A stretch of DNA of 64,000 bases from an uncultured Aminicenantes bacterium (GCA_965195285.1 CBDAFS010000015.1:64001-128000), one strand, 5' to 3'; counted from the first letter of the stretch, positions 264 to 63,394 are shown. The notes: generated from the sequence alone by a model not told the origin. Made by a program: numbers and translations.

Positions 264-530
264 TTGTAAACTTGTATTTATCTCACCTCAGCTTTTCAAC
301 CGCACTTTTCTTTTCCCTCTTATTGTATTGATGGATGGTGTGATTTGAACTTAACTTCAGGATATTCATTTGCTTTCGGTTCTGTCGGATACCACACTTA
401 CACCCAGCATAAGAGCCGCTGGGATTTGGAAGAGAGAAATCAGAGCGGGAATCAACCGTTGCACAATTGAATCAAAAAAAATTTAAAAGCTTAATTGTGA
501 AGATGAGAAGTTAAGAAGTTGAGAAAATGA

Positions 531-48386: not shown

Positions 48387-48401
48387 GAGTAAAACCAATT
48401 G

Positions 48402-48889: not shown

Positions 48890-48941
48890 GGGGTCAGAAG
48901 AAGGGGTCAAGTCTTTAATCAGAAGGGGTCAAGTCTTTAAT
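48890..48941 (+). repeat. Three tandem AAGGGGTCA(AGTCTTTAAT) motifs downstream of the RAYT fragment
   Basis: GGGGTCAG at 48890 and GGGGTCAAGTCTTTAAT at 48903 and 48925. The inverted partner AAAGACTTGACCCC is at 49232-49245. Confidence 0.85.
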
Positions 48942-48972
48942 TCACGTTTCGTGATAAGCCTCATTATTTCAA

Positions 48973-49194
48973 TCACCTTATTCTCAACCGAGGAGTATTT
49001 ATTAACATATGATAATGGTTAGGTTTCAAAGCAAACGCATATATATTAACAGACCATAATTCTGATGCCTGGGAAAGCAAGTCAATAAAAGTTTGGTAAT
49101 CCTCATCATCTAAATAAATTATCTCCAATCTCCTTCCCCTGTTCATAACATGATACCAGGCTCCAGGATATTCAATTCTTAAAGGCCTGCTCAT
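48973..49194 (-). pseudogene. Truncated REP-associated tyrosine transposase (RAYT, HUH Y1 family)
   Basis: MSRPLRIEYPGAWYHVMNRG, then YAFALKPNHYHML (HUH), then a stop before the catalytic Tyr helix. Confidence 0.88.
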
Positions 49195-49516
49195 GACAAT
49201 ACAATATCATTATATTCTTGAAACGAAGTCCAAAGACTTGACCCCTTTATTTATTATGTGATACGATTAGCAGGTGCAAAAGAGTAATAAAGTAAGGCAC
49301 CGTCCCCGTAATTTAATTATTGATTGTAAACAGAGATTTGACTTTCTTAAATTGTTAAATTAGTATAGTTAGTAAAAGCATAGTCTTCCATTTAGAGCTC
49401 TATTTTGGAGAGAATGTCATTATGAGTACAATTTTTTCCTTAAAAAAATCGCGGAGGTGAACGATGGGGTTATTTTTTGATTTTAACAAAACATTTAATG
49501 AAATGGGTAGGGCATT

Positions 49517-49641
49517 TGTGCGTGGTCACCAGGTTTGAGACTTTTCTGGTCATGAGGTTTGAGACTTTATTAAAGTTAATATTTTCAGAAAAGTTTTAAA
49601 CCTTTTATCCCCAAAAGTTTAAAAACTGGTGTTCACGCACA
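49517..49641. mobile_element. 125-bp non-autonomous element with IS21-like ends
   Basis: Ends TGTGCGTG...CACGCACA. Each end carries two AG(G/T)TTT.A.ACTTT motifs at about 24-bp period. No ORF and no clear target duplication. Confidence 0.55.
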
Positions 49642-49681
49642 ACAACATAAAGAAAATATTATGGATCTGTAAATTAAAAAA

Positions 49682-50839
49682 ATGGAAATCATCAATATGG
49701 CACAACTCTTAACAATCGGCGTGATTGGAAAAACACTAAAAGAAAACGAAAAACGAGTAGCCATTCATCCGGAACATATAAAAAGCATTCCAAAGGGATT
49801 ACGAAAACAAATCACTTTTGAAGAAGGTTATGGATTGAGATTTGGCATGGATGATAACACTTTAGCCAAACTTACATCAGGGCGAGTTGCTTCCAGAGAA
49901 GAAATACTGAAAGGTTTTGATTGTGTGCTAATACCCAAACCTTTGGCAAAAGATTTGTCTCAGGTACGAGCAGGTGCAATTGTCTGGGGTTGGCCGCATT
50001 GTGTACAACAGAAAGAAATGACGCAAGTATCAATTGAAAGAAAATTAACCCTTATTGCCTGGGAAGAAATGTTTACATGGAGCCGAACAGGTGATAAAAA
50101 TATGCATATTTTTTATAAAAACAATGAAATAGCAGGCTATGCCAGTGTAAATCATGCGATAAGTCTTATCGGAGTTGTCGGGAATTATGGAAAACCCCGA
50201 AAAGCAGTGGTACTCAGTTTTGGATCGGTGAGTCGAGGGGCAGTATATGCATTGCAAGGTCAAGGATCTCGAGATATCACGGTCTACACCTGTCGCGCAT
50301 CAACAAATGTGAGTGATCAATTGCCTACAATATCTTTTAAACAAATGAAGAATGACGATTCAGGAAATTTGCTTGCAGTTGAATCTGACGGCAGTACTCG
50401 CCCATTTGCAGAAGCATTATCAGATGTGCAAATAATTGTTAATGGAACCCTTCAAGATGTTGACCATCCAAAAATGTTTGTACCTGAAGATGAGGCTGAT
50501 AAATTGATGAAAGGCACTCTTATTATTGATATAAGCTGTGATGAGGGAATGGGTTTTTGGTGTGCCAAACCAACATCCTTTGAATACCCAATGTTTGAAG
50601 TGGCGGGTAAATTTTATTATTCAGTGGATCACAGTCCAAGTTATTATTGGAATTCTGCCTCATGGGAAATTTCAAAAGCATTACTTCCATTTTTACCCAT
50701 AGTTATTGGGGGACCAAATAAATGGGAAAAGAACAAAACCATTTCAAAAGCAATAGAAATATGCAATGGAGTAATTCAAAATCCGAAAATTCTTTCATTC
50801 CAAAATCGAGAGAAAGATTATCCACACCAATTTCGTTAA
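49682..50839 (+). CDS. N5-(carboxyethyl)ornithine synthase-like protein (AlaDh/PNT superfamily)
   Basis: KENEKRVAIHP, FEEGYG.RFG, WGWPHCVQ, NNEIAGY, SFGSVSRGA, DISCD and VDHSPS. Start may be ATG 49697. Confidence 0.82.
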   Translation: MEIINMAQLLTIGVIGKTLKENEKRVAIHPEHIKSIPKGLRKQITFEEGYGLRFGMDDNTLAKLTSGRVASREEILKGFDCVLIPKPLAKDLSQVRAGAIVWGWPHCVQQKEMTQVSIERKLTLIAWEEMFTWSRTGDKNMHIFYKNNEIAGYASVNHAISLIGVVGNYGKPRKAVVLSFGSVSRGAVYALQGQGSRDITVYTCRASTNVSDQLPTISFKQMKNDDSGNLLAVESDGSTRPFAEALSDVQIIVNGTLQDVDHPKMFVPEDEADKLMKGTLIIDISCDEGMGFWCAKPTSFEYPMFEVAGKFYYSVDHSPSYYWNSASWEISKALLPFLPIVIGGPNKWEKNKTISKAIEICNGVIQNPKILSFQNREKDYPHQFR

Positions 50840-50875
50840 TGAATTCTATTACAATGAAAATTACATCGTAAAACA
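50819..50875 (+). repeat. 57-bp direct repeat copy 1 (CEOS 3' end); copy 2 is at 51786-51842
   Basis: Hand alignment gives 48/57 identical with no gaps. Confidence 0.9.
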
Positions 50876-50936
50876 TAGGGTTTAAGAAAACTTGTAAAAC
50901 AAGAAAAGACATGGAAAAATTCAGGGAATATTTATA

Positions 50937-51758
50937 ATGGGCATAATAATTAATAAAGAACTTAACAGATTACGAACAATAATCGAAAAAAATAGAGTTG
51001 CATTTACTGATGTGGCTAATATTCAACAGCTACAAGTTGGATATGATGTTAGGGCAGACAATTATAGCAAAGAAAGCCAAAGCAGGCCGGATAAAGTACA
51101 TCAGACTACTTTAACAGAGAGGTTCTTTCTTGAAGAACTGAGAGGATTAATAAGCGGCAAAAGAATTGCTTATTTGGATGTTGGCTGTGCAGATGGCAGA
51201 AGAACTAAGAGGTTTTTCAACGAACTGGAGGATTTTTGCCAAATTGACAGACTTTGTGCAATCGACTACTCAAGAGAAATGGTTGCACAAGCACAAGGAA
51301 TTCTGGGACATTCAAAAGTTGCATGGGGAAATATTACTGATTTACCTTTTCAGGCTGAATTCAATGTAGTTACCTGTATGTATGGCGTTATTGGACATTT
51401 ACCGGAGGATTTGATTCAACAAGCTATTAATAATCTATCTCAGACTCTCGTAGATGGAGGCATTCTCTGCATAGATGTTCTTGGAAGAGATCAGAAGTTT
51501 CTTAAACAATACCGTTATAACGAAGTCAATAGTAATCATGGGAAATATGTTGCATATTTTGTTAAAGTAGGAGGGAGTCCGTTAATGAATGGCAAAGACC
51601 AGCGAATAGTCTATACTATGCGGATGTTTACTCCGGGAGAAATAAAAACTTACGCTAAGAATACAGGTCTTAGACCAGTAGCAGATAAAGAAATTTATCC
51701 GGTTGAAAGAGGGGTTAATGAAATGGAATATGCATTAGTACTTAAAAAAGAGTGCTAA
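50937..51758 (+). CDS. Class I SAM-dependent methyltransferase
   Basis: YLDVGCADG, IDYSREM, GNITDLPF and L..GGILCID. Confidence 0.85.
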   Translation: MGIIINKELNRLRTIIEKNRVAFTDVANIQQLQVGYDVRADNYSKESQSRPDKVHQTTLTERFFLEELRGLISGKRIAYLDVGCADGRRTKRFFNELEDFCQIDRLCAIDYSREMVAQAQGILGHSKVAWGNITDLPFQAEFNVVTCMYGVIGHLPEDLIQQAINNLSQTLVDGGILCIDVLGRDQKFLKQYRYNEVNSNHGKYVAYFVKVGGSPLMNGKDQRIVYTMRMFTPGEIKTYAKNTGLRPVADKEIYPVERGVNEMEYALVLKKEC

Positions 51759-51834
51759 CAAATCTATTTGTTTGCTTCGATAGAATATCCATACCAATTT
51801 CGTTAATGAATTTTATGACAAAAAATTTTACATT

Positions 51835-51886
51835 GTATAACACTGTGTATAGCGCATTAAAACGCGCCATACACTAACCGTTAGGC
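51835..51886 (+). other. attC-like recombination site
   Basis: GTATAAC...GTTAGGC outer boxes with an inner inverted pair GTGTATAGCG / CGCCATACAC. It is 52 bp, shorter than canonical attC. Confidence 0.45.
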
Positions 51887-51929
51887 GAAATATTATTCGG
51901 TCATTACGGAGCTACATATTTATAGAGAG

Positions 51930-52169
51930 ATGTATATGAAAATTTTAAAGCCGCACTTAGATTCAATTTTTGATATTGCTGGTTCAGACGAAAATGCACT
52001 CACAAAATCATTTGGCGTAATTCTGAGAAAAGATAAGACATTACTGAGTAATTTTTTGTCGGTTGCTATGAAAAAATCTTACTCAATATCAAAGCAGTTA
52101 TTTGACAGAACTCATTTTTATTTTGAAAAAAGTTATTCTGGGGGGCGAACTGATTATCTTCTCCGTTGA
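51930..52169 (+). pseudogene. N-terminal fragment of a PD-(D/E)XK-type nuclease
   Basis: ENALTKSF...EKSYSGGRTD, then the frame runs into IS-derived DNA before any E-x-K motif. Confidence 0.5.
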
Positions 52170-52252
52170 GTACTTCTTTCTGCTCATTCTGCCTCCTCAG
52201 ATCCAGATAAATACTAACATAAAAACTGGATCAGTTTATGGGGGGCAGGTGT
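52152..52252 (-). mobile_element. Left-end remnant of an IS3-family (IS407-group-like) element
   Basis: Minus strand reads ACCTGCCCCCCATAAACTGATCCAG...GAGGAGG-ATG(52187), translating MSRKKYSTEKII, typical of an OrfA start. Confidence 0.65.
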
Positions 52253-52277
52253 ACGCATAATCGGGGTCAGGTCTAAA

Positions 52278-53921
52278 CAGGCTGTTGCCCAAATAAGGTT
52301 TTTTATATTTAAGGGTTGAGGGAAAATATTCCGAAAAGGCCTATAATATTGATTAATTAAGCATTTCATGGTATAATATTGTTTTTTGAGGTGTTTAAAA
52401 ATGATGGGTAACGAAGAGAGTCAAGAGGACAAATTCATTTACAATTTTCGTCTCAGTAAACGTATACCTTTGGATCATCCTTTAAGAAAGATAAGGGATA
52501 TGCTTGATCTTGATTTTCTGTATGATCTTCTAAAGAGAAAGTACGGAACCAGGGGCAATGTATCAGTACCGCCTCCGGTATTGATGAAGATGATGTTGTT
52601 GTTGGTATTTTACAATGTTCGTTCGGAGCGAGAGTTGATGCGAACCATACCTATGAGATTAGATTGGATTTGGTTTTTAGGATATGACCTGGACGATGAT
52701 ATTCCGCATCATAGTGTATTATCCAAAGCCAGGAAGCGTTGGGGAGAGGCAGTATTTAAAGAGTTATTCGAACGAATACTGCTTCAGGCTGCCGAATCCG
52801 GTTTGGTAGATGGGGGTAAGCTTTTTGCGGATTCTTCATTGGTTGAGGCAGATGCATCGAGGAATTCGGTAAAAAGGATAAGCAATATGAAATTAGCCTC
52901 CACTTATAAGGAGTTGTTAAACAGGTTGGATGAAGGAGAGTCAGAGGATGAAGAGGAGCCGGGGGATAAAGGGAATGAAGGAGGCCGATACAGTAAAGTA
53001 AATAAGATACATAAGAGTGACACCGATCCTGAAGCAACCATAGTTCGTCAGCAGGGGAGTTCAGATCTTTATTATAAAGTTCACCGCAGTGTAGATGAGA
53101 GGTGTGAAGTGATAACCTGTTGTCATACGACAACCGGAATAGTGAATGAGGCTCATGTTCTGAAAGATCTGATAGATGGTCATAAGGCGATTTTAGGTTG
53201 TGATCCGGGAATAATTGTGGCAGACAGCAAATATGGTACAAAGGAGAATTTTGTTAAATTAAAGAAGAGGGGGATCAAGACTCATATCAAAGATTTATCC
53301 ATGGCCCAGAAAGAAGGAGGGTCAAGGAAAGGGAAATTTTCGAAGGAAGATTTTGAATATAACATTGAGGGGGATTATTTTGTATGTCCAGGTGGAGAGA
53401 AATTAAAAAAGAGGTCCTATAATCCCAATCGTGGTTGGTACGAATACAAAGCGAGTAAGAATAAATGTGATGTATGCCGCCTTCGATTACAGTGCACAGC
53501 TGACAAAAATGGTCGTAGTTTGAAGAGGCACCCGGAGGAAAAATATTTACAGTTGGCCAAACAGGATGCCCATAGTATTGGAGCGAAAGCTGATTTAAAG
53601 AAGAGGCAGCACTTAATGGAAAGGAGCTTTGCGACCGGTATCCGTTATGGCTATAAAAGAGCCAGGTGGAGGAATATGTGGCGAGTATCGATTCAGCAGT
53701 ATTTAATAGCAACTGTCCAGAACCTTCAGAAGATTTTCATTTATGGAGGGGATTTAAGACATAATAAGGCAATTTATCTTAATTTGTTACAAAAATTTAG
53801 CTTAAAAAATTGTATATTTGGAATATTAACAAAAATTAATCTCAATCTCAGTGTTTTAAATTTAAAAGTATAGTAAATTTATAAATGTGGTGTTTAAGAT
53901 TATGGTTTAGGCAACAGCCTG
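52278..53921 (+). mobile_element. IS1182-family insertion sequence, 1644 bp
   Basis: Terminal IRs CAGGCTGTTGCCCAAA / TTTAGGCAACAGCCTG (15/16). A 4-bp target duplication TAAA lies at 52274-52277 and 53922-53925. Confidence 0.92.
52386..53873 (+). CDS. IS1182-family DDE transposase
   Basis: IPLDHPLRKI, RSERELM, WFLG...IPHHSVLSK.R.R, ADSKYG, CPGG, C..C.LR.QC and ERSFA. Start is probably ATG 52401. Confidence 0.92.
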   Translation: MRCLKMMGNEESQEDKFIYNFRLSKRIPLDHPLRKIRDMLDLDFLYDLLKRKYGTRGNVSVPPPVLMKMMLLLVFYNVRSERELMRTIPMRLDWIWFLGYDLDDDIPHHSVLSKARKRWGEAVFKELFERILLQAAESGLVDGGKLFADSSLVEADASRNSVKRISNMKLASTYKELLNRLDEGESEDEEEPGDKGNEGGRYSKVNKIHKSDTDPEATIVRQQGSSDLYYKVHRSVDERCEVITCCHTTTGIVNEAHVLKDLIDGHKAILGCDPGIIVADSKYGTKENFVKLKKRGIKTHIKDLSMAQKEGGSRKGKFSKEDFEYNIEGDYFVCPGGEKLKKRSYNPNRGWYEYKASKNKCDVCRLRLQCTADKNGRSLKRHPEEKYLQLAKQDAHSIGAKADLKKRQHLMERSFATGIRYGYKRARWRNMWRVSIQQYLIATVQNLQKIFIYGGDLRHNKAIYLNLLQKFSLKNCIFGILTKINLNLSVLNLKV

Positions 53922-54331
53922 TAAAGAATAAAGAAATCGATTGTCCAAGAATATGGTTTTCCTACAAATCAACAGTACTTTTTTCAACTAAAAAGTAATT
54001 GATTTTTAAATAAAACATTTCTACATTTGTGTGCGTCGTCCCCCTTTTTCAGCATTTTAAATATTCCTATTTAATTGGGATGTTAAATTTGACGGGAGCG
54101 AAAGGGATGAGTTGGAAAAATAAAAAATTGTAGAAAGAGTGAACAAGGAAATTCGACATCGAGTATTGGAATGAAAAACATTACAGACAAATCTTTATTC
54201 TTTAGACTTGACCCCTAAGATTTTTTTTTTGAATTAGATGGATGGTGTTTTGTGGGGCTGATATTGTTATTTCGTAACCACTCTATCAAAGACTAGATGC
54301 ATATCTTTGCTGAAGTAGGATAGGGGGTTTA

Positions 54332-54460
54332 TCAATATGGGCCAGCTGGTCCCTGATTTATATTTTTTTCTTTTTTCTGTTTTCGTTTTTCTTTTTGGGT
54401 GAGTTTGCCCTTTTTTTGATGTTCTCGTTTGCTTTTATCTTTTTTCCCTTTATCGCCCAT
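54332..54460 (-). CDS. Small lysine-rich basic protein (42 aa)
   Basis: Hand translation MGDKGKKDKSKREHQKKGKLTQKEKRKQKKEKNINQGPAGPY, with RBS AAGGGGGA. Below the ORF-track cutoff. Confidence 0.6.
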   Translation of the reverse strand: MGDKGKKDKSKREHQKKGKLTQKEKRKQKKEKNINQGPAGPY

Positions 54461-54612
54461 ATTTATTCCCCCTTACCTGTTTAATTTTATTAATAATTTT
54501 AATATATAACCATATGAATTTTATAAAATCGGGGACAGATTGTCAATTTATTAATTTTTTTAAAATACCTTATCTTGCTAACTCCACCTCAAATCCCTAT
54601 ATAGGCATAAAA

Positions 54613-55629
54613 CTAAACTAACTTGTTTAAATATCTTTCAGTGAACTTTATTATATTATTCATCATGTCAACTGCCTCAACCGGATATTTTCCCACAGCT
54701 GATTCAGCCGAAAGCATAACAAAGTTACTCCCGTCTATTATAGCGTTGGCCACATCGCTTACCTCCGCGCGGGTAGGGATGCGGTTTTCGGTCATACTCT
54801 CCAGCATCTGCGTCGCGGTTATAACAAACTTTCCGGCGCGCCTGCATTTTTTGATAATTGTCTTTTGTATAACAGGGATTTCGTAAACTGGCAACGACAC
54901 CCCCATATCTCCGCGCGCTATCATGATGCCGTCCGAAACCTTGATTATTTCATCAATATTTTTTATACCATCCCGATTCTCTATTTTGGCAATAACCCGG
55001 CACCGCGAACCTCCTCCAAGTACCTTTCTTACATCCATGATATCCTTTTTCGTGCACACGAATGACTGTGCGATATATTCAACACCTTGCTTTTCACAAA
55101 AGAGTATATCCTTTATATCCTTCTGGCTTATACTACCAAATTCCAGCCGTGCCTCCGGGATATTTACGCCCTTATGTCCTTTAAGCAAGCCGCCGAATAC
55201 CACTTTGACCTTTAAGCTGTTTTTAACCCGGGCAATCACTTCTAAAACGATATTTCCGTCATCTATGAATATTTGGTGGCCGTTCTTAATAGGGTGTAAC
55301 GGGCATTGATAATCAAAAGGTATTTTTTTATGCGATCCATTTGTTTTTTGCTGGGTAAGCCACACTATCTGGTCTTTTTTAAGCAAAATTGGAGCAATAA
55401 GATCACCTACCCTTATGCGATGGCCTTGCAAGTCACCAAGAAGCTTAACGCTCCTATGATATTTTTTATTTAAAAGCCGAATGAGTCCTATTCTATGAAG
55501 CAATTCTTGCGGCTTGCTGTGGGAAAAATTCAGACGCCCAACATCCATGCCGGCAAGCATCATTTTTTTAAGCACCGTCTCGCTCGACGACACTGGGCCA
55601 AGCGTACAGATTATCTTAGTCTTAACCAT
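54613..55629 (-). CDS. pyk: Pyruvate kinase lacking the C-terminal regulatory domain
   Basis: [52 protein letters not shown] and MLSAESAVG. Ends at 338 aa. Confidence 0.88.
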
Positions 55630-56170
55630 AAAATTTATTCATATTACATTTCACTCTCGTCAGCTCCATAACTAAACCCTCGGGCGATTGGACCACGTTG
55701 CTCGCTTGACAAACTGAAACGTTTCAACCTGCCGTCGTCTTCTATTAAGGCTTCCGAATAAAACCGACTTTCCGGATAGTTCTGGATGAAATCTTCATAC
55801 GCCTGAATGGAATTGTTTTTAGTCACAATAGGAAAATCGTTTTTCCATCCTGTTAAAAAAATATTAGAGAATTGGCTATCCATTGTCAAGCAATTGAGTG
55901 AAATATGTTTCATGGAAAGGACCGGGTGCAGAAATGTAATTTTAATGAGAAACCTTTTGGATTTTTACCTGGCTGCCTTATACAATAAAAGAGAAAAACA
56001 AAAAATGTAGAAAATTAAATTTTCTACACAAATCCGGAATATTTCAAGTAATATTGAAATGCAAAACCTGATCCCACTCATTCCATTAATGTATAAGTGG
56101 AGATTTTTTGGGAACCCGGACGATACTGGAACCGTTATAAGTTTATTATGCAGGAATTAAGGAGAATCAG

Positions 56171-57196
56171 ATGAAGAAAATTCTAATACTATCATTTATT
56201 TTAATTTCGTCATTATTAATCAATATTTATGCATCGGAACCGGTGGAACTGCCGGAGCTTACCCGACCGTCAATGTTCATTATTAATTATGACCGGATAT
56301 ATGTCCTGGAAGAGGCAACGGTTCGCGTCTATTCCCTTGAAGATTTTACATTAATAAAAAAGTTCGGCAGGGCAGGGGAAGGGCCCAAAGAGTTCAAGTA
56401 CAGCGGTGGAGACGGCAGGCCGTTGTCGATGAGTTTTTTTAAGGGGCAGTTGATCGTGAACAGTGTGATGAAGATGTCTTTTTTTGATAAGGATGGGGTT
56501 TATATCACGGAAACAAAGGTGGCTGTGGACAGACTCCTCTTTCCCATTAACGGCAAGTATCTGGGTATCGGCCCCACTGCAACTGAAAAAAATGCTCAAT
56601 GCATCGGATTTACCATCTATGACGGTCAGTTTAAATCACCACAAGTTATATTCATAAGCGATGTTGAAATTAACAATCCAACCAGATTTGTGCTGCCCAT
56701 TACAAGCTTCACCTACAAACCCGTCTATAAAGAAAAGATATTTGTGAATTCAAGCTCCGATGATTTCAGGATTAATGTATTTAATAGTGAAGGGAAAAAA
56801 GAATATACCATAGAGAAAAAATATCCGAAAATTAAAATACCGGGTCATTTCAGAACTGAAGCGTTGGCGTTCTTCAAAAAAAGCCCGGTGTTCAAAAGTG
56901 CCTTTGAATATCTGAAAAAGATTTTGATTATAAGAGAATATTATCCTCCAATCAGGGACCTTCAAATCGTTGATGATCACCTATACGTTCTTACCTTCAA
57001 ACGAAAGGGTGACCTCTGGGAATTAATTAAACTTGATCTGAAAGGTGATGAGAAAGGCCGATTATTCATACCTCTGACTGAATATGAATATTTCACCTGG
57101 TATCCGGTCTTCTACTCTGTTTATAAGGGAAAGGTTTATACACTGGTGGAAGATGAGGAAGACGAAGTCTGGAAGATTTACATAAACACATTTTAA
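56171..57196 (+). CDS. Secreted 6-bladed beta-propeller protein
   Basis: Signal peptide and FGRAGEGPKEF motif. RBS AAGGAG. Confidence 0.7.
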   Translation: MKKILILSFILISSLLINIYASEPVELPELTRPSMFIINYDRIYVLEEATVRVYSLEDFTLIKKFGRAGEGPKEFKYSGGDGRPLSMSFFKGQLIVNSVMKMSFFDKDGVYITETKVAVDRLLFPINGKYLGIGPTATEKNAQCIGFTIYDGQFKSPQVIFISDVEINNPTRFVLPITSFTYKPVYKEKIFVNSSSDDFRINVFNSEGKKEYTIEKKYPKIKIPGHFRTEALAFFKKSPVFKSAFEYLKKILIIREYYPPIRDLQIVDDHLYVLTFKRKGDLWELIKLDLKGDEKGRLFIPLTEYEYFTWYPVFYSVYKGKVYTLVEDEEDEVWKIYINTF

Positions 57197-57236
57197 ACAA
57201 AAAAATCCCAATGTCCTAACGGATCGTGCAAAATAC

Positions 57237-57341
57237 AAGACCTGACCCTATTAAACTTCATAGATCAATAATACTTTTTTCAAATAAAAAGTAATTGATT
57301 TTTAAATACAGCATTTCTACAATTTGTGTGCACCGTCACCC
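57237..57341 (-). repeat. Two G4 motifs flanking a ~77-bp segment shared with element copy A
   Basis: AAGACCTGACCC at 57237. Segment 57264-57341 aligns with 53968-54044 and ends GCACCGTCACCC. Confidence 0.8.
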
Positions 57342-57496
57342 TTGTCATAGACTGCGGAGATGCAATGCTTCTTCTTGGAGAGATTGGTGATGTTAGGGCA
57401 ATCGACCCAATAATGAATTTTGACGCGAACGTTGGGCAATTCCTAACATACAAGAACGCCGCTCTTGACAAGCTTCGGAAGGCTAAGCATAGTTAG
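57341..57496 (+). pseudogene. 3' fragment of a HEAT/PBS-lyase repeat protein
   Basis: The frame reads LVIDCGDAMLLLGEIGDVRAIDPIMN...AALDKLRKAKHS*. LGEIGD.RAI.P matches the HEAT_PBS pattern. Confidence 0.55.
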
Positions 57497-57608
57497 AAGA
57501 GGGTTTGCGTGAAAGAGTTTCCCTTATTATTGGGAATGGGGGGATTTGACAAAGAAAAATCATTTCTATAACATTTTATTTTGGTAACATAAAAAAGGAG
57601 AATGGAGA

Positions 57609-58577
57609 ATGTTAACCAGAAAATGTCTTAATTGCGGTGTCCCATTGGCACTCAGAGAAGACCAGGTCGAATTAGAAGTAGAGATGCGTAAAGTAAATCC
57701 TGAATTTGAATTGCCTGTCTGGTGTGCAATCTGTGAAAGAAAGTTAAAGAAAAAAAAATTGAATATTGTCAATTTTATTTATGATGTCTTATCTATTTTA
57801 ATTGCATTGGGTATTCTTGCATTAATTATTAACATCGGTGAAAAGAGTCCCAATCTCTTTACAAAAGTGATTTTAAACCTTAATTTACTTTCCTACATGA
57901 CGCTTAATATCGGTGTAGGATTTTTATCCAGTTTGCTTTTTGTGGTTTTGCTTGAGAATTACAATCCGAGAGGACATGCTATTGATAAATCACATCTATG
58001 GGTGCACAAAGATACAAAAACCAAACAAAGTGATGCCACCAAGCGTGATGTATATGAACATTATCATGGCTATGGCAGCTGGGAAAAAAAGTCAAAAGCT
58101 GAATGGAAAATTATCCATATAATTGGACTCATTTTTGCCGGATGTGGAGGTTTTTTTGTTGCGCTTTTGAAAGAAAAAGCCTATAACATACCGGTTGTAT
58201 TGATAGCGGGTGTTATTGGTGTGTTGATTTACATCCTTATTCACAAGTTATTGGATATTGAATTTTTAACCCATGATAATTCCAGTAACTCGCTTCAGCC
58301 TGTTAGCATGGATTTTTCCAATTTATTTAAAGGGCAAACTTCAGGTTCGATGTTATATTACGGGATAGCATTTTTCATCATATTTGTTTTCAGTATTGTG
58401 GTCTCAATATATTGGGTGATATATTTTTTCATATTACATAAAGAAAGTACAATATTATTAAATCCTCCCCTGATACAGCTATATACCATCTCGCTGAGAT
58501 TGATGGGGATATTAATACTCTTTTTATTGGGGGAATGGTTGTTGTTAAAGCAAAAAGAAAGAAAAGCCAAGAGTTAA
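57609..58577 (+). CDS. Hypothetical multi-pass membrane protein with N-terminal CxxC...CxxC Zn ribbon
   Basis: CLNC and CAIC, about 6 hydrophobic segments. RBS AAGGAG/GGAG. Confidence 0.7.
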   Translation: MLTRKCLNCGVPLALREDQVELEVEMRKVNPEFELPVWCAICERKLKKKKLNIVNFIYDVLSILIALGILALIINIGEKSPNLFTKVILNLNLLSYMTLNIGVGFLSSLLFVVLLENYNPRGHAIDKSHLWVHKDTKTKQSDATKRDVYEHYHGYGSWEKKSKAEWKIIHIIGLIFAGCGGFFVALLKEKAYNIPVVLIAGVIGVLIYILIHKLLDIEFLTHDNSSNSLQPVSMDFSNLFKGQTSGSMLYYGIAFFIIFVFSIVVSIYWVIYFFILHKESTILLNPPLIQLYTISLRLMGILILFLLGEWLLLKQKERKAKS

Positions 58578-58686
58578 TAGAAAAAAGGATTGAAAAAAAG
58601 CTATTAGGCTTAAGAAAAATCACTCGACTTTTTTTCTACCCCTTCTCGCAAGAGACCGGAAATGGTATCAAATCTAAAAGTTAACC

Positions 58687-58889
58687 GGGGTCAGGTCTAA
58701 AGAATAAAGAAATCGATTGCACACCGCATTTTAAATATTCCTATTTAATTGGGATGTTATATTTGACGGGGGCGAAAGGGATGTGTTGTAAAAATAAAGA
58801 ATAGTAGAAAGAGTGAACAAGGATATTCGACATCGAGTATTGGAATGAAAAACATTACAGACAAATCTTTATTCTTTAGACCTGACCCC
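58687..58889. repeat. REPIN/MITE-like element copy B (intact, 203 bp)
   Basis: Perfect 24-bp terminal IR GGGGTCAGGTCTAAAGAATAAAGA / TCTTTATTCTTTAGACCTGACCCC. Confidence 0.92.
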
Positions 58890-58903
58890 CAAGATGTTCA
58901 AAA

Positions 58904-61867
58904 CTATTTATTACCTTCCAGCTCTTTCACCCTTTTTCTGGCATCTTCAACCAGGGGCTGGAACTGTTGATCGCAATCTTTCCATAAATCGATAAATTTA
59001 TTGTAGTTTTCAATGGCCTTGCCTTTCCAGCCTTTTTGTTCATATATTTTCCCCAGCATGTAAAAGCTTTTAGCATAGATATCTCCAAAGATGAGCCTGC
59101 CGGTGGTTAGAGATAGGATCTTTTCATACTGTTCCTGAGCTTTTTCAAAATCTCCCTTTATATAAAAAGCCGCGGCCAGGGGTTCGATAAACAAAGCATG
59201 CTGATCTGCTGAGTACATCTTATGTTGATGGGGCAGCAAAGTTATGGCTTTTTTAAAATATTCTACAGCTTTTGAAGAATTGTTTCTTTTTGATTCGATC
59301 ATTCCCATAAGATGAAAATAAAATCTTGTACGCTTTTGGTTCATTCCTTTTTTGATCAATTCCCTGAGTTCATCTGCGGTTTTTTGGGCTAAATCCAGTG
59401 ATCTTTTAGCAGCCAACACAACTCCCTTATAATACAATATCGATGTTTGATTCCCCAGGTTCTTTCCTTTGACTGCCCTGTCCCATTCAATTTTGCACTC
59501 TTTTAATGCCTCACTGTGATTTCCTGATTTGAGATATTTGTAAATTAAAGATCTCTTGAAGATTAAATGCCAGGCCCACTGACCGGACCTTTTGGCCAGT
59601 TTGAGTCCCAATCTTACCTGGTTTAGCGATTCATTGAATTTTCCTGATAATAAAAACAAAGAGGATAACATCAACCTGCCATACAATTTATTTGGTGTTC
59701 CACCGGATTCAAGAAGTTTCCGGTATTCCCGTTCCGATTTAATCATATCTCCTTTATAAATATAAATATCACCCTTTAAACGGAAATCATAAAAAGAATC
59801 AGGGTTTATAGAAGATGCCTTGTCTGCTTCAGCAATGGCAAGTTCATATTTGTTCTGGAGAATATAAATATGGGCCAGTCGGCGGCGAATAAAGGCATTG
59901 TCCGAAATATTATTGAGATAAAAACTTAGTAATTCCTCTGCCCTGTCATATAAACCCTTTGCTTCATATGCTTCTGCTAAAGTATAATATGACGTTATAC
60001 TTTCAGCACTTAAAGAGATTTTGAATTTTTCTATGGCCTTGTCCCACTCTTCCAAATCGCTGTATAAGAGCCCCAACTGGTGGTGGCCGGATAAATCTTC
60101 AGGGTAAAATTGCAGCAATTTTTTATAGGCTGCCATGGCTTTTTTATCGTTGTTTTCCACATTTAAATAGAACTCAGCCTGGTTTCGGTAACGCTCTCTA
60201 TCTGATATCCTGTCACTCAATTCAAAGGATTTCTTTACATATCTTTTCATAGCATTAAAATCACCTATATTATAGGAAGCCATTGCCAGTGACCGGTAAG
60301 CAGTGGCAAACCTGGGATCAATGGCTATAGCTTTCTTGTAATAGGGGATAGCTTTTCGGTAATTTCCGTTTTGATATAATTTTCCAGCTGTAATGTAGTT
60401 TTTATATGCTTCAAGAGACGAGGTGGTAATGGTCCCGATATTCCTGTCGATATCTTCAGAAATTACCTGCTCGGAAAGATCGAAATTCAATTTGATCTTT
60501 TTTGTGACCTCATCCACCTTTGATAAGACATTTTTTTCTCCCCTGGACTCTACGGTTAATGAGTTAATAATGTCACCTGAATCGGCTTTATAAATCATTA
60601 TGTTGATACGAAAATTTTCACCGATTTTGATATAGTTTCCCCTGATTATGTGATTTGTTTTCCCACGGGCAGCGACTTTTAATAAATCCTCGGTAGAGTA
60701 TTTTTTTGATTCCAGTAGATTCAATTTTTTCAGGATACCGAAGAGTCTGTCTCCTGGTAAAACATTGATCAGTTTTGACTGGGATAAGTCTGTGATAAGT
60801 AACTCTGCAAGAGCGCTGCGCCAGTAATCCAGTTTCTCATCTCCTGTGTTGTTCTCAAAGTATACAATGGCAATTGAGGGTTTTTCCCCTGGTTTAATTA
60901 CAGGTGTTTCTGGTTTCGGTTTTCCTTTGAATATAAAATAACCGGCAATGATGATAACCGCAATAAAAATACTTCCCAGAATCAAAACTTTTTGAGAGGC
61001 TTTCAGGGTGATCTCCGGACTGGTTTTTTTTCTGGAAACGCTTACATCCGGCGTTGAGTCCTTTTTCAGTTTTTCCAGGTCAACCATCATATCATCCACA
61101 TGCTGGTACCTTTCAGAAGGATCTTTGACCAGGGCCTTGTTAATAATCCGCTCCAGTTCCTGGGGAACTCCGGTGCGTATAGCAGTGACAGGCTCCGGAT
61201 CCTCGTTTAAAATGGCATATACAACTGCCTGTTCATAATCCCCTTTAAAAGGTAATTGACCCGTAACCATTTCATAGAGCAATACGCCCAGGGACCAGAT
61301 ATCAGTCCTGTGATTCACCTTCTTGCCCATGGACTGTTCGGGTGACATGTAGGATGTGGTTCCCACCGTGGTGCCGACTTTGGTTAATTTGGATTTTCCC
61401 TTTAGCTTGGCCAGACCGAAATCCATGATCTTCACCTGGCCTTTTTCATTTATCATGATATTAGCACTTTTGATATCTCTGTGAACAATCCCCTTCTCAT
61501 GTGCTTCCTGCAGGCCTTCTGCAATCTGAAATGCAATTTTTAAGGATTCATCTATTTTTAAAGGACCAGATTCGATCTTTTCTTTTAGGTTCTGGCCTTC
61601 AATATAACTCATGGCTATAAAAATCTGGTCTTCCTGTTCATCTATCTCATAAATTGAGCAAATATTCTGGTGTTCCAGAGCAGCCGAAGCTTGAGCTTCT
61701 ATAAAAAACCTTTCCTTGGAATCCTTATCTCTGGTAAACTCGGGAGGCAGAAATTTCAGGGCAACTGTACGTTTTAGTTTTGTATCCTCAGCCTTATAAA
61801 CAACTCCCATTCCACCTTCACCGAGTTTCTCAAGGATTTTGTAGTGGGAAATGGTTTTTCCGATCAT
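58904..61867 (-). CDS. Hanks-type Ser/Thr protein kinase with TM, TolB_N/FlgO-like domain and TPR repeats
   Basis: LGEGGMGVVY, VALK, HRDIKSAN, DFGLA and YMSPEQ. Then a TM, SIAIVYFEN and multiple TPRs. Confidence 0.93.
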   Translation of the reverse strand: MIGKTISHYKILEKLGEGGMGVVYKAEDTKLKRTVALKFLPPEFTRDKDSKERFFIEAQASAALEHQNICSIYEIDEQEDQIFIAMSYIEGQNLKEKIESGPLKIDESLKIAFQIAEGLQEAHEKGIVHRDIKSANIMINEKGQVKIMDFGLAKLKGKSKLTKVGTTVGTTSYMSPEQSMGKKVNHRTDIWSLGVLLYEMVTGQLPFKGDYEQAVVYAILNEDPEPVTAIRTGVPQELERIINKALVKDPSERYQHVDDMMVDLEKLKKDSTPDVSVSRKKTSPEITLKASQKVLILGSIFIAVIIIAGYFIFKGKPKPETPVIKPGEKPSIAIVYFENNTGDEKLDYWRSALAELLITDLSQSKLINVLPGDRLFGILKKLNLLESKKYSTEDLLKVAARGKTNHIIRGNYIKIGENFRINIMIYKADSGDIINSLTVESRGEKNVLSKVDEVTKKIKLNFDLSEQVISEDIDRNIGTITTSSLEAYKNYITAGKLYQNGNYRKAIPYYKKAIAIDPRFATAYRSLAMASYNIGDFNAMKRYVKKSFELSDRISDRERYRNQAEFYLNVENNDKKAMAAYKKLLQFYPEDLSGHHQLGLLYSDLEEWDKAIEKFKISLSAESITSYYTLAEAYEAKGLYDRAEELLSFYLNNISDNAFIRRRLAHIYILQNKYELAIAEADKASSINPDSFYDFRLKGDIYIYKGDMIKSEREYRKLLESGGTPNKLYGRLMLSSLFLLSGKFNESLNQVRLGLKLAKRSGQWAWHLIFKRSLIYKYLKSGNHSEALKECKIEWDRAVKGKNLGNQTSILYYKGVVLAAKRSLDLAQKTADELRELIKKGMNQKRTRFYFHLMGMIESKRNNSSKAVEYFKKAITLLPHQHKMYSADQHALFIEPLAAAFYIKGDFEKAQEQYEKILSLTTGRLIFGDIYAKSFYMLGKIYEQKGWKGKAIENYNKFIDLWKDCDQQFQPLVEDARKRVKELEGNK

Positions 61868-62238
61868 GTATCATCTCTCCGATGAATTTTATAGCATATA
61901 GATATTTTATTTTCAATAAAAGGGGATTAACTTTTGATTTTAATTTATCATAGAAAAAAAATGTCCCATGAAGGAATCAAATCCCTTCAATTCTGGCCAG
62001 ATCCGGCCTATCCACCACCTCCTCCCCTGATCGCCCAATCCCGCAAAATGCACACTATCTGCCTCACCTTTGGGACCGGTGGCATCCGGTGGGGAATGGG
62101 GGGGGTGGGTATTCCTATACAGTATAGTGCAATTCTTCATGAATTTCACAAGTATATTGAACTATAACATTTTCTTGACTTTCATTTTAAAACTCCCTAA
62201 AATATCTTCGTGTTTATATTTGAAATGGAGGAGGAGAA

Positions 62239-62835
62239 ATGAAATCAACACTTAGAGCTTTACTCTATTTTATTTTTCTTTTAGGATTGATTTATCATCT
62301 GGGTTGTTCAACGACCGGTGAGGTGGATAATCAATATATTCTCACCGTGAGTTTGGCGAATGGAGTTTCCGGAATTCCGGCAACAGGTACATATGTGTAT
62401 GATGAAAATCAAACCGTTACGTATAGTTATACCCTTGAGGTCGGATTTAGAAATCTGGTGGTTTTCCTGAATGATGTGGCCATTGCCGATTCTGGAATTA
62501 TTACCATGGATAATAACCATGTACTTAGGGTGGTGGCGGATCCGCCATTCGATGTTACCGGCGAATGGCATGGTTATTTAGAGGGGGGGTTGGCAAGAGA
62601 ATTCTGGGTGACTTTTTTTGAAGATAATTATTGCATCGGCATACTGGAAAATTATTCCGGTGAATTCGATCAAAGCAATTACCAGATTTCAGACGGGCAT
62701 ATTTCTATCGATCTGGATAGTGGATCGCGTGATTTTTTGATGGAGGGAACTATCGAAAACGACAATCGGATGAGTGGTACCTGGTATTCATATTTTTATG
62801 GAACGAACGGAACCTGGTGGTTGGAAAGAGATTAG
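62239..62835 (+). CDS. Lipoprotein with a beta-sandwich repeat-like domain
   Basis: Lipobox LGC, YILTV....GVSG.P..G and V.Y.Y. RBS GGAGGAG. Confidence 0.7.
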   Translation: MKSTLRALLYFIFLLGLIYHLGCSTTGEVDNQYILTVSLANGVSGIPATGTYVYDENQTVTYSYTLEVGFRNLVVFLNDVAIADSGIITMDNNHVLRVVADPPFDVTGEWHGYLEGGLAREFWVTFFEDNYCIGILENYSGEFDQSNYQISDGHISIDLDSGSRDFLMEGTIENDNRMSGTWYSYFYGTNGTWWLERD

Positions 62836-62910
62836 GTTCATGTGTTGGGTCTGGTCTTTCGAAATCAATTTCATAAGAATCATGTCATCAGTATTGAGGG
62901 ATTCGATATT

Positions 62911-63162
62911 ATGAAAATTACCAAACAAGATGTGGTTTGGGCATATCGGCTTATGCTGGACAGAGATCCGGAGAGAGAAGAGGTTATTGAGAACTATATT
63001 AAAATATGCAATACGCCGGAGCAACTCAGGGATATAATATTATCCTCGGAAGAATTCAATGAAAGAAATCCGACTTTTGCCCAAAACTATATCAAGATTC
63101 CATTTCCGCCGGAAGAGCTGATGCACTTGGTGGCTGGATTGTATGACTGGGGTCAGGTCTAA
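62911..63162 (+). pseudogene. 5' fragment of a gene (DUF4214-like N-terminus, probably a methyltransferase) cut by repeat copy C
   Basis: AYRLMLDRDPE...ILSSEEF and PFPPEELMHLVAG. The stop TAA lies inside GGGGTCAGGTCTAA. Confidence 0.65.
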
Positions 63163-63394
63163 AGAATAAAGAAATCAATTGTTTCCGTCATTTTTAAGGA
63201 TCCACATTTAAATGGGATGATTTGTTTATTTGAAGGGTCGAAAAGGAGAAATTGTAAAAAAAATGATCCAATTATCTTAATATTATATGTTGTAATGTAA
63301 AATTTGTCCCCAGTCTATGTAAACTATACAAAAATGCCCAAAATTGCAAAAAAGGTCAAATAAGATTAAACTCAAGAACTCAAGCACCGTCCCC
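63149..63394. repeat. REPIN/MITE-like element copy C (diverged, with a different right end)
   Basis: Same 24-bp left arm and about 110 bp of diverged body. Ends with TTGTCCCC (63304) and GCACCGTCCCC (63384-63394). Confidence 0.8.

Follow-up and report, generated by a model that had tools for sequence, protein, structure and literature searches.

Heads, elements and genes of the accessory region

The window, the whole 64,000-nucleotide stretch of DNA that was analysed, comes from a Candidatus Aminicenantes-like sediment genome. In its first 48 kb, 26 of the 33 ORFs of at least 180 aa belong to Pfam families of ordinary cell functions, among them PhoH, ThyX, LptD, DXP synthase, RND efflux and thymidylate kinase, and none of the 33 encodes a transposase. 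The contrast between orderly housekeeping genes and a subsequent patchwork, drawn in the original prediction, is thus real. Core genes (PFOR, M17 peptidase) resume past the window, and the stretch between the two sets of core genes is an accessory-gene region of about 16 kb. No tRNA genes were observed in the window, hence it contains no tRNA-type integration site.

The region is punctuated by short GGGG-headed motifs (heads), and all 16 positions listed in the original prediction are occupied. The type I head, GGGGTCA(A/G)GTCT, is exact at 48903, 48925, 49245rc, 52263, 54215rc, 58687, 58889rc and 63149, and a partial copy of 7 nt lies at 48890; the copy listed as 57248rc ends at 57249 and reads AGGGTCAGGTCT, with one mismatch. 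The type II heads are GGGGACGGTGC (both 49307rc and 63394rc), GGGGGACGACGC (54044rc) and GGGTGACGGTGC, with three G (57341rc). The GGGGACA(G/A) heads at 54531 and 63311rc are further, diverged ends. With at most one mismatch, the type I 12-mer has 9 matches in the window, all between 48903 and 63160, whereas 100 dinucleotide-preserving shuffles of the window averaged 0.37 matches and had at most 3, none of them reaching 9. Genome-wide there are 36 exact copies of this 12-mer, and looser type I and type II patterns yield 110 heads across the 3.28-Mb draft genome. The genome-wide scan proposed with the original prediction singles out this very stretch (48.9-63.2 kb) as the densest head cluster, with 13 heads per 14.5 kb starting at position 112904 of contig C15 (window 48904), compared to 7 and 6 in the runner-up clusters and a genome mean of 0.49. 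Shorter forms of the motif do not stand out: the genome has 409 occurrences of GGGGTCA and 519 of GGGGWSAS, the latter with 7 in the first 48.9 kb of the window and 7 in the island.

The window contains one internally deleted TIRtron (an element in which long terminal inverted repeats bracket the gene of a RAYT-like Y1/HUH enzyme, or TIRYT), three gene-less miniature elements and five solo ends. Every motif continues into the family-specific interior of a TIRtron remnant, a miniature element or a solo end. The first solo end, of type IIa, lies far upstream of the cluster (216..290, plus strand); it has three stacked heads GGGG(G)TGAC (222, 236, 251), which explain the long match reported at 216-263, and its interior matches the right repeat of the TIRtron C15:51363-52360. 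The cluster proper begins with a junction stutter (48890..48936, plus strand) consisting of the partial GGGGTCA at 48890 and two full heads GGGGTCAAGTCT at 48903 and 48925, each preceded by a repeated piece of the flank. It is followed by a type Ia TIRtron of 321 bp (48925..49245, minus strand), which matches both ends of the intact TIRtron C46:20630-21668: positions 48990-49246 correspond to the 5' 257 nt and 48923-49008 to the 3' 87 nt, and about 695 nt of the gene are deleted. The remaining gene fragment (48973..49194, minus strand, 73 aa, Y1_Tnp match with E 2.8e-5) retains the N-terminus and the HUH motif and has no catalytic Tyr region; the RAYT remnant of the original prediction is therefore genuine. 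The next element, GGGGACGGTGCCTTACTTTATTACTC (49283..49309, minus strand), is a solo end repeat of type IIb, the same kind as in the TIRtron C49:48791-49769.

The type Ib miniature element E3 (52263..54215) is interrupted by two nested insertions, so that its own parts are 52263-52277, 53922-53943 and 54052-54215. One insertion is a DDE-type insertion sequence (IS) of the IS1182/IS5 type (52278..53921, plus strand), present in one copy in the assembly. Its transposase ORF 52386-53873 matches DUF772 (E 5.7e-19) and DDE_Tnp_1_6 (E 1.7e-17). The insertion sequence has inverted repeats in 52272-52293 and 53906-53927 and is flanked on either side by TAAA, a target duplication of 4 nt. The other is an insertion of about 108 nt (53944..54051, minus strand) with the terminal type II-like head GGGGGACGACGCACACAAAT (54044rc). 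Its 80-nt core, 53968-54046, recurs with 89% identity as a second copy at 57264..57343 (minus strand) with the type II-like head GGGTGACGGTGCACACAAAT (57341rc). Next to the latter there is a solo type Ic-like head, AGGGTCAGGTCT followed by TGTATTTTGCA (57238..57249, minus strand). The solo head GGGGACAGATTGTCAA (54531..54565, plus strand) belongs to a further family with copies at C24:3501-3535 and C12:113529-113573, for which no cognate gene was found in this assembly. Element E6 (58687..58889) is an intact type Ib miniature of 203 bp with perfect 24-nt terminal inverted repeats GGGGTCAGGTCTAAAGAATAAAGA. The miniature element E7 (63149..63311) has a left head of type Ib and a diverged right head GGGGACAAATTTTACATTAC (63311rc), and its homologue C55:112099-112263 has one Ib and one Id head. 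The last solo end repeat, GGGGACGGTGCTTGAGTTCTTGAGTTTA, is of type IIb-like sequence (63367..63394, minus strand).

The passengers are ordinary accessory genes lying between the elements, not captured cassettes. Genes of an AlaDH/PNT-like protein (385 aa) and a class I methyltransferase (273 aa) occupy 49682..51758 (plus strand) and have no DNA match in 30 relatives. The block 54613..57196 encodes a pyruvate-kinase-like protein (338 aa), an 89-aa ORF and a 341-aa protein of no known family. The pyruvate-kinase-like protein is short and consists of the barrel domain only, yet it is full length for its kind, and truncation of its gene can be ruled out. The block 57609..63162 encodes a 322-aa membrane protein, a 987-aa Ser/Thr kinase that has TPR repeats and belongs to a large family of paralogues, a protein of 198 aa and an ORF of 106 aa. 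Fifteen ORFs in 48.4-64 kb were scanned with Pfam, and not one matches an integrase or recombinase.

Two genes had been described as broken at a motif. One is a 50-codon open frame with an unconvincing start that abuts the 80-nt element (57344..57496, plus strand). It could possibly be a C-terminal piece of a HEAT-repeat protein, but the HEAT_PBS score of 19.2 bits is below the cut-off of 20.9, which makes the family call a weak one. The other, said to end at 63149, is the ORF 62842-63162. It does run into E7, with the stop codon inside the repeat; as no homologue was found in 30 relatives or among longer proteins, there is nothing to compare its length with, and E7 may or may not have truncated it.

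TIRYT genes and their end repeats in the genome

Each motif type heads the terminal inverted repeats of one particular subfamily of RAYT-like Y1/HUH genes. The Ia repeats flank TIRYT genes at C14:33136-34171 and C46, the Ib repeats the gene of the element C47:23077-24135 (intact ORF C47:23118-24080, 320 aa; ends with the same 24 nt as those of the miniature element), the Id repeats genes at C3 and C61, the IIa/IIb repeats genes at C15:51363-52360, C26, C27, C50 and C49, and the IIc repeats a gene at C12. Inverted repeats of 12-31 nt are present at 12 of the 18 TIRYT loci of the genome; the remaining loci are truncated or miss one end. The type I head goes with the subfamilies MSRPLRIEY, MARPIRIEY and MARPLRIEF, and the type II head with MRRAR(I/V)TY and its relatives. 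The assignment of the motifs to a RAYT-like HUH/Y1 system is thereby confirmed, and intact enzymes that could be supplied in trans exist as well: elsewhere, the genome has 13 complete ORFs, 290-326 aa long, in which both the HUH motif and the catalytic Tyr are present.

Four paralogues analysed with Pfam match Y1_Tnp with E between 1e-10 and 2e-14. The C-termini are diverse: Bac_DnaA_C was found in the C46 and C47 proteins (E 5e-10 and 9e-8), the C61 protein has a weak MarR-type HTH match, and no Pfam C-terminal family was found in the type II protein C15:51416. A profile of 14 paralogues matches E. coli TnpA_REP (4ER8, E 1.8e-6), in an alignment that covers the HUH and Tyr regions, and DnaA domain IV (1J1V, E 7.4e-5); a phmmer search with a single TIRYT against PDB sequences gave no match at E 0.01. 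His62 and Tyr119 are invariant in all 14 paralogues and His60 is conserved in 13 of them, at an overall identity of 25-47%. The NCBIfam model REP_Tyr_transpos scores 71.2 and 69.1 bits, under its cut-off of 80. There are 21 TIRYT matches in this genome and 0-15 in each of the 30 relatives.

The genome has 103 family-assigned ends versus 13 intact genes. The right part of E6, about 100 nt, is 87% identical to the 3' end of the Ib TIRtron C47:23077-24135, and as single-stranded DNA E6 is predicted to form a hairpin with a 24-bp stem (-33.1 kcal/mol, z -5.4). Judging by such similarities, the miniature elements are derivatives of gene-bearing TIRtrons. Copies of miniature elements differ by 6-12%, and together with the low identity of the paralogues this gives no sign of recent bursts.

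A genome-wide survey of matched inward-facing repeat pairs within 8 kb yielded 24 pairs. Thirteen enclose a TIRYT gene or remnant, eight are elements of 45-202 nt, and three are long and represent composites of separate elements; none of the 24 encloses a cargo cassette. The passenger genes of the window sit between outward-facing ends, and the arrangement GGGG...CCCC is seen around them on neither strand. Among 25 neighbouring pairs of heads at most 300 nt apart, 10 face inward, 15 point in the same direction (11 of these join different families), and none are back to back. Elsewhere in the genome, two TIRtrons are flanked by long direct repeats, 87 and 42 nt. The idea that these represent target duplications of general occurrence can be dismissed, since they are found at 2 of 42 elements and the others are at the control level; a simple single-strand cut-and-paste model does not predict them.

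Boundary duplications, relatives and strains

About a quarter of the ends, both here and in distant phyla, have short tandem duplications across the outer boundary, compared to 0-2% in controls. In 29 of 48 such duplications the partial copy stops precisely behind GGGGTCA, pointing to a site-specific break there. From this fixed end we infer that the enzyme breaks DNA 6-7 nt into the head; the predicted cut falls between nucleotides 6 and 7 or 7 and 8 of the head GGGGTCAGGTCT. The duplications appear to be new as a feature: the parts of PMC3733652 and PMC6006769 available to us make no mention of boundary duplications with a fixed break after GGGGTC(A). An initial bias of the stutters towards the repeat at the 3' end of the gene (13 of 16) disappeared in a wider listing, with 9 loci upstream and 8 downstream.

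The loci from other phyla were collected with an alignment of five type I proteins, and the sample is biased to type I relatives. Of the 69 loci in this sample that could be evaluated, 32 have repeats; the head is of the GGG(G)WSAS form in 24, and the 12-nt head GGGTCAGGTCT occurs in 20 of the 32. Closer to home, the 24-nt Ib repeat is present in all four genomes of the genus and in none of the 57 other genomes of the family.

Positions 45000-64000 were compared with 30 relatives by DNA search, and with G001:C37 by tblastx. One informative adjacency resulted. In the relative G001, the homologue of the 341-aa protein gene (56171-57196) directly adjoins an S4-domain gene, and the 7.3 kb that here separate these two genes, from the TIRtron remnant on, are missing. 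On its other side it has a different neighbour, a homologue of 41358-43037. Gene order differs widely among the relatives, the genomes of the genus are fragmented (270-520 contigs), and intergenic alignment defined no breakpoints; with such poor general synteny even to the nearest relatives, the comparison cannot show how the region was built.

Evidence on strains and reads came from Logan contigs. Those of the sample X14 are at least 99.6% identical to the window over 45000-57254. Overlapping contigs keep the window order over 45000-52212 and 54154-57254 and depart from it at 57206 and 57254, beside the head 57238-57249. The original expectation that the region differs between relatives and strains was therefore correct. 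There is next to no X14 cover of 57680-58313, 58948-61483 and 62118-62751, which is not evidence of absence. An apparent X14 joint 49306->63367 was rejected, as it rests on 24 letters of shared repeat. The stutter tract 48855-48920 has 25 letters in X14 versus 66 here; this may be a real difference in stutter length or an assembler collapse of tandem repeats. In one X14 contig 52273 is followed directly by 53922, 4 letters being compatible with either side; this contig thus represents the IS-free site. The DDE-type IS is the only insertion with demonstrated polymorphism, and it is not an HUH event; no empty sites of TIR elements were seen in the contig data.

Interpretation and comparison with known systems

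In our opinion, with a probability of roughly 85%, the GGGG heads are the inverted end repeats of TIRYT genes and their miniature derivatives, piled up in an accessory region, and not integron-like joints. The TnpA_REP enzymes of E. coli and Marinomonas cut REP DNA in its single-stranded form and join it again, and by analogy the intact TIRYTs would mobilise gene-less derivatives in trans. The break would lie 6-7 nt into the head, as the fixed end of the boundary duplications indicates. Fresh copies would land next to, or just within, existing ends. Such landing would account both for the stacks of same-orientation heads from mixed families and for the clustering.

The original prediction treated the heads as recombination joints at which an HUH enzyme acting in trans captures, truncates and reassorts passengers in the manner of an integron. 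The density of the cluster, the existence of intact enzymes, the lack in G001 of the 7.3 kb starting at the TIRtron remnant, the departure of X14 contigs near the head 57238-57249 and the possible gene fragment adjoining the head at 57344 all fit this model. Nevertheless, we consider it very improbable. The survey found no passenger between matched inward-facing heads, and the window genes are flanked by outward ends; every head runs on into element sequence; the X14 joint 49306->63367 is no more than shared repeat; and no scanned ORF resembles an integrase or recombinase. Moreover, since G001 differs on the other side too, rearrangement is not confined to the island. With no cargo pairs and an untruncated pyruvate-kinase-like gene, integron-like capture is unsupported.

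An assembly artefact, in which the metagenome assembler joined unrelated blocks at repeats of about 200 bp and so produced part of the patchwork, is improbable too, if slightly less so. Several contigs of the genome end in one and the same repeat (C15:1-141, C18, C23, C47, C57). Contigs of X1, the likely source run, end at or in the repeats (48854, 54081/54178, 58711/58852, 62986/63149), and the intervals 58711-58852 and 62986-63149, that is E6 and E7, are unbridged among the matches listed (30 of 493 pieces), so that the block order at these two elements rests on the original assembly. However, with 30 of 493 pieces listed the absent bridges prove nothing, X1 record 5 crosses 54178-58711 in one piece, and the independent sample X14 follows the window order over both of its long intervals and across the IS site. 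Somewhat better placed, and still unlikely, is the possibility that the repeats are domesticated and serve the host as REP-like terminators, mRNA stabilisers or protein-binding sites, the TIRYTs being inherited vertically and the local density reflecting abundant intergenic DNA. The parts of PMC5581495 available to us describe RAYT-type genes as more housekeeping-like than IS-like, the Ib repeat is unchanged throughout the genus, and the heads are intergenic, often just downstream of genes. On the other hand, remnants, nested insertions, solo ends and boundary duplications resemble decay and turnover, the excess of heads over the genome mean goes far beyond what extra intergenic space would give, and the number of paralogues is high and uneven among relatives (0-21 matches).

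The elements of this genome can be assigned to the TIRtrons/TIRYTs with GGGGWSAS-headed repeats, and binding and cleavage of the repeats by the enzymes are predicted. TIRtrons and TIRYTs were described by Di Nocera, De Gregorio and Rocco in 2013 (PMC3733652), and the TIRYT class corresponds to TnpA_Y1 subclass 2.1 of Quentin et al. 2018 (PMC6006769), as far as the available parts of both papers go; it largely coincides with RAYT group 1 of Bertels et al. 2017. TIRYTs are RAYT-like Y1 (HUH) enzymes with a length of about 300-326 aa and often with a DnaA-domain-IV-like or HTH C-terminus. In the same parts, the consensus of their flanking inverted repeats is the GGGG[AT][CG]A[CG] that the original prediction had named. 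The system considered here shares with them the Y1/HUH core with a C-terminal Bac_DnaA_C or HTH domain, the long terminal inverted repeats that bracket the gene with no REP hairpins, heads fitting GGGGWSAS, moderately abundant solo, dimeric and clustered repeats, and several diverged paralogues per genome. It differs in the number of intact ORFs (13 versus three in Koribacter among the published examples in those parts), in the 203-bp gene-less derivative with perfect 24-nt ends that is traceable to one gene-bearing element, and in the tandem duplications at the boundary, where the break is fixed after GGGGTC(A).

The REP/REPIN-RAYT systems (TnpA_REP groups 2 and 3) were reportedly described by Nunvar in 2010, Bertels and Rainey in 2011 and Ton-Hoang in 2012. 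They have a homologous enzyme (the profile match to 4ER8), own inverted repeats flanking the gene, clustered repeats and gene-less hairpin-forming doublets, of which the 47-nt palindrome C31:81037-81085 is an example here; target duplication, as in these systems, is absent in 40 of the 42 elements of this genome. However, the heads GGGGTCA... or GGGG(T)GACG... are not self-complementary and contain neither the GTAG/GTGG tetranucleotide nor a stem within a single repeat, and no GT[AG]G stem-loop was found. The repeats, about 12-30 nt, pair solely with the opposite end, and the paralogues are numerous, whereas REP/REPIN-RAYT genomes have a single gene for each repeat family. Enzymes of REP groups 2 and 3 cleave at C|T or C|A beside the hairpin, whereas cleavage by TIRYTs is a prediction from sequence. 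Corneloup 2021, in the part available to us, is a further source on REP/REPIN-RAYT systems.

The IS200/IS605 elements share the Y1 HUH catalytic core and the general absence of target duplication, and single-strand, strand-specific action is likely for TIRYTs as well. Unlike them, a TIRYT is twice as long and has a DNA-binding C-terminus, and its element ends are inverted repeats, not different subterminal hairpins; no adjoining TnpB partner was seen among the TIRYT genes examined. As in integrons, short recurring sites punctuate a run of unrelated genes. However, no integrase was found in the 15 ORFs scanned at this locus, the sites are element ends with their own interior rather than cassette-borne attC, they occur in both orientations, and no cassette is bounded by matched sites.

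Thus, the finding does not hold up as a gene-capture system. The enzyme class to which the motifs belong has been described but hardly studied, and this genome is a rich natural example of it: there are 13 intact paralogues with a separate repeat variant for each, along with gene-less derivatives and nested insertions. A more far-reaching and rather doubtful proposal is that the heads are break sites of TIRYTs in vivo (GGGGTC/A|G), and that breakage and error-prone repair at clustered heads could produce duplications, deletions truncating neighbouring genes and gene turnover between strains. If true, this would make the region a zone of HUH-driven plasticity, in a weaker version of the original idea, and the break site would be the first prediction of where the transposases of a whole domesticated-looking subclass, found across many phyla, cleave DNA. 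The recurrence of boundary duplications in distant phyla makes the site of TIRYT action a concrete, testable prediction. Should it hold, the role in the cell of RAYT-like enzymes with inverted-repeat ends would become directly testable.

A bounded, motif-dense region

The window covers positions 64001-128000 of contig C15, and all motif sites of the original prediction were located in its sequence. With at most one mismatch, GGGGTCARGTCT has nine matches in the window, every one within 48903-63160, whereas shuffled windows contain 0.37 matches on average and nine were reached in none of 100 shuffles. The draft genome (3.28 Mb, 62 contigs) contains 36 exact copies of GGGGTCARGTCT, and looser type I and type II patterns yield 110 heads, the GGGG-starting tips of terminal inverted repeats. 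In a genome scan the densest 14.5-kb stretch starts at window position 48904 and holds 13 heads, the runners-up having 7 and 6 and the mean being 0.49. The first 48 kb are orderly, as described originally: Pfam places 26 of the 33 long ORFs in core-function families, and mobile-element genes are absent (0/33). Core genes (PFOR, M17 peptidase) appear again approximately 2-5 kb past the end of the window. Therefore, given the motif sites, their density and the core genes on both sides, this is a real, bounded accessory region of about 16 kb. The window contains no tRNA genes.

TIRYT genes and their repeats

The original prediction correctly linked the motifs to a RAYT-like HUH system, as they are the heads of repeats around intact Y1 genes. 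The 73-aa gene remnant of the window, used as a tblastn query, identified 19 loci in the draft genome, itself included. Thirteen are open for 290-326 aa, and are thus the intact RAYT-like paralogs that had been sought; one is open for 223 aa and five are partial (one at a contig edge). The encoded proteins, TIRYTs, have a Y1_Tnp core, to which type I members add a Bac_DnaA_C or HTH tail. Two residues, His62 in the HUH motif and Tyr119, do not vary among the paralogues, and a profile of 14 of them matches E. coli TnpA_REP (4ER8, E 1.8e-6) and DnaA domain IV (7.4e-5). In the full-length paralogue of 322 aa at C30:32107-33075 (locus L042), RFH replaces the first His of the HUH motif, and judging from the sequence this protein may be catalytically altered.

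Each intact gene lies between inverted repeats (12-31 nt) starting with the predicted motifs. This agrees with the arrangement, including GGGGWSAS as the repeat consensus, for which Di Nocera et al. introduced the names TIRtron (gene with its repeats) and TIRYT (PMC3733652). The corresponding passages of Quentin et al. assign TIRtron/TIRYT, DnaA-like tail included, to TnpA_Y1 subclass 2.1 (PMC6006769). Within the literature searched, these two works alone use the family name. At the loci of the draft genome the heads sort according to protein subfamily. The head GGGGTCAAGTCT accompanies the MSRPLRIEY... genes, GGGGTCAGGTCTAAAGAATAAAGA the MARPIRIEY... gene at C47:23077-24135, GGG(G)TCAG(G/T)TCTTTCATT the MARPLRIEF... 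genes, and GGGG(T)GACGGTGC..., the original type II, the MRRAR(I/V)TY... genes; GGGGGACGTTGCTTGACA and GGGACACATCC are the heads of the loci on contigs C12 and C8, respectively. The 5' end of the Ib TIRtron is found both where contig C47 ends (C47:23997-24135) and where contig C15 starts (C15:1-141). These contigs are probably neighbours, or the Ib TIRtron is present twice. A near-perfect 47-nt palindrome at C31:81037-81085 is a REPIN-like doublet of two type Ic heads placed face to face (GGGGTCAGGTCTTGCATT...AATGCAAGACCTGACCCC).

The 24-nt Ib repeat occurs in all four genomes of the genus, whereas 57 other genomes searched in the family lack it, and the best match of the Ib protein outside the draft genome (91%) lies on a contig titled Candidatus Aminicenantes bacterium. 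The draft genome has 21 TIRYT matches versus 0-15 in 30 relatives, with at least one in 29 of the 31 genomes. Scanning one genome per species for a sequence pattern gave at least 551 relatives from at least 608 candidate stretches. The best 80 of these at least 551 loci were surveyed by a simple search for repeats of at least 12 nt: 11 are at contig edges, 37 have no such repeat and 32 have one, with the head GGG(G)WSAS in 24 and GGGTCAGGTCT in 20. Loci with these heads belong to Nitrospirota, Desulfuromonadia, Gammaproteobacteria, Bipolaricaulota and others. One TIRYT relative, with the repeat head (T)AAGGGTCAGGTCT, is on a contig titled Promethearchaeota archaeon MAG (L089); its occurrence on this Asgard-binned contig may reflect a binning error or transfer.

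Elements of the window and gene shuffling

Element E1 (48925-49245), with stacked extra heads at 48890-48936, is a type Ia TIRtron whose gene lacks about 695 nt, the 73-aa ORF being the TIRYT remnant; both ends match an intact element of contig C46. A solo type IIb end (49283-49309) follows in the same direction 62 nt beyond E1. Element E3 (52263-54215) is a type Ib miniature, that is, a gene-less derivative, with two interruptions. One (52278-53921) is of IS1182/IS5 type (DUF772 and DDE_Tnp_1_6), with its own inverted repeats and a duplicated TAAA; the other, of about 108 nt, has an 80-nt core that recurs at 57264-57343 and a type II-like head at its end. The IS has one copy in the draft assembly and forms a separate contig in X14, a run from another sample. 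Solo heads of a further family and of an Ic-like type are at 54531-54565 and 57238-57249, respectively. E6 (58687-58889) is an intact Ib element, 203 bp long, whose 24-nt ends are perfect; over 100 nt its right arm is 87% identical to the Ib TIRtron at the latter's 3' end. As single-stranded DNA, E6 is predicted to fold into a hairpin with a 24-bp closing stem (-33.1 kcal/mol, z -5.4). Its relative E7 (63149-63311) has one Ib head and one diverged head. There are two more solo ends, one of type II at 63367-63394 and one of type IIa, in which three heads are stacked, at 216-290.

The heads were originally proposed to be integron-like, HUH-based joints capturing and truncating passenger DNA. Genome-wide there are 24 matched inward-facing repeat pairs at most 8 kb apart. 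Thirteen surround a TIRYT gene or remnant, eight are elements of 45-202 nt, and the other three, on contigs C53 (5.4 kb) and C55 (4.4-4.6 kb), are each formed by two separate elements; no cassette-like unit with foreign cargo is among the 24. The passenger genes of the window sit between outward-facing ends. As every matched inward pair is a TIRYT gene or remnant, a short element or a composite, integron-like capture by the heads is not supported: the stretch is a rich instance of TIRtron repeats and their derivatives, and not such a capture device.

Of the two genes said originally to break at a motif, the ORF at 62842-63162 does read into E7. The presumed HEAT fragment is an open frame of 50 codons whose match to HEAT_PBS is below threshold. 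No homologue of ORF 62842-63162 was detected in the 30 relatives or among longer proteins. The pyruvate-kinase-like ORF 54613-55629 (minus strand; 338 aa) has the barrel domain only, without the C-terminal domain. Truncation was considered and ruled out, because its counterpart in a relative's genome (356 aa) ends at the same place; it is a natural short paralogue. In that relative the S4-domain gene adjoins the homologue of 56171-57196, with 48.9-56.1 kb absent between them, and the next gene is the homologue of 41358-43037, so the gene order differs widely.

Contigs of X14, from a different study, keep the window order at 45000-52212 and 54154-57254 with very few differences, and a single contig joins 52273 to 53922, the empty site of the DDE IS. 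Two contigs depart from the window order, one at 57206 and one at 57254, next to the 57238-57249 head. These observations are consistent with a strain-variable region in which breakpoints can fall at repeats; contigs also end at repeats for technical causes. E6 and E7 are not bridged by any contig listed for the likely source run. Contigs of X14 and of another run, X2, skip 105 nt (35 codons; 55664-55768) of ORF 55644-55913.

Of the 25 pairs of neighbouring heads at most 300 nt apart in the genome, 10 are inward, 15 have the same direction and none is back to back. Different families are combined in 11 of the 15 same-direction pairs, and nested insertions are present within E3. The same-direction pairs and this nesting suggest that new copies land at existing ends: they would settle beside or just inside them, in a fixed orientation. 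Such landing is expected of strand-specific Y1 enzymes recognising a head-like sequence. The gene content of the region is likely dispensable, and thus insertions there are likely tolerated. At its right edge is a strong homologue of PD-Lambda-1, a single-gene anti-phage defence system (PADLOC model, E 1.9e-173). This protein has 440 aa, carries DUF4041 and T5orf172/MUG113 domains and is encoded on the minus strand from 63711-64000 on to C15:129033 (L125:711-2033).

The 987-aa Ser/Thr kinase with TPR repeats (58904-61867, minus strand) matches the PADLOC PD-T4-6 kinase models in the kinase domain only (E 2e-99). This part has DNA-level paralogues on more than 10 contigs, several of the paralogues being near other head clusters (C55, C12). 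A 73-nt direct repeat (50812-50884 and 51779-51851, 79% identical) brackets a methyltransferase gene, which looks as if it had been inserted with duplication; the first copy is the 3' end of an AlaDH/PNT-like ORF, and no GGGG head is involved.

Duplications at element boundaries

At many ends the outer boundary is adjoined or spanned by a short tandem duplication, which can be written [flank x + GGGGTCA][flank x + GGGGTCAGGTCT...]. Such duplications were observed in the draft genome at 29 of 103 family-assigned ends, with a unit of 5-23 nt, compared to 6 of 397 shifted and 59 of 5000 random control positions. They are present too in other species of the genus, and at 16 of 64 ends of TIRtrons from other phyla (controls 0/125). 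In a pooled set of 150 distinct type I ends (draft genome, genus and other phyla), searched up to 60 nt outside, there are 48 partial head copies. Exactly 7 nt (GGGGTCA) are copied in 29 of these; the remainder have 6 nt (six copies), 8 nt (three), 9 nt (two) or 14-30 nt (eight). Type II ends, in small numbers, have the same pattern, the partial copies mostly stopping after GGG(G)TGACG or GGG(G)ACG.

One fixed and one variable boundary are the expected trace of imprecise restart or fill-in after a site-specific strand break. Because the duplications have such boundaries, we infer from these sequences that the DNA break made by TIRYTs lies 6-7 nt inside the head. Alternatively, the duplications could originate from a replication block at a bound protein. 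The predicted TIRYT break, GGGGTC|A, compares with the cleavage at C|T or C|A beside a hairpin that is described for TnpA_REP of groups 2 and 3 in the pertinent passages of PMC8266576.

Target duplications are at control level in 40 of 42 TIRtrons. The exceptions are two intact TIRtrons of the draft genome (C15:51257-52449 and C8:11250-12105), flanked by long direct repeats of 87 nt (98.9%) and 42 nt in otherwise unique DNA. The passages on TIRtron and TIRYT consulted in PMC3733652 and PMC6006769 make no mention of boundary duplications, and this signature, together with the break site that it implies, may be new.
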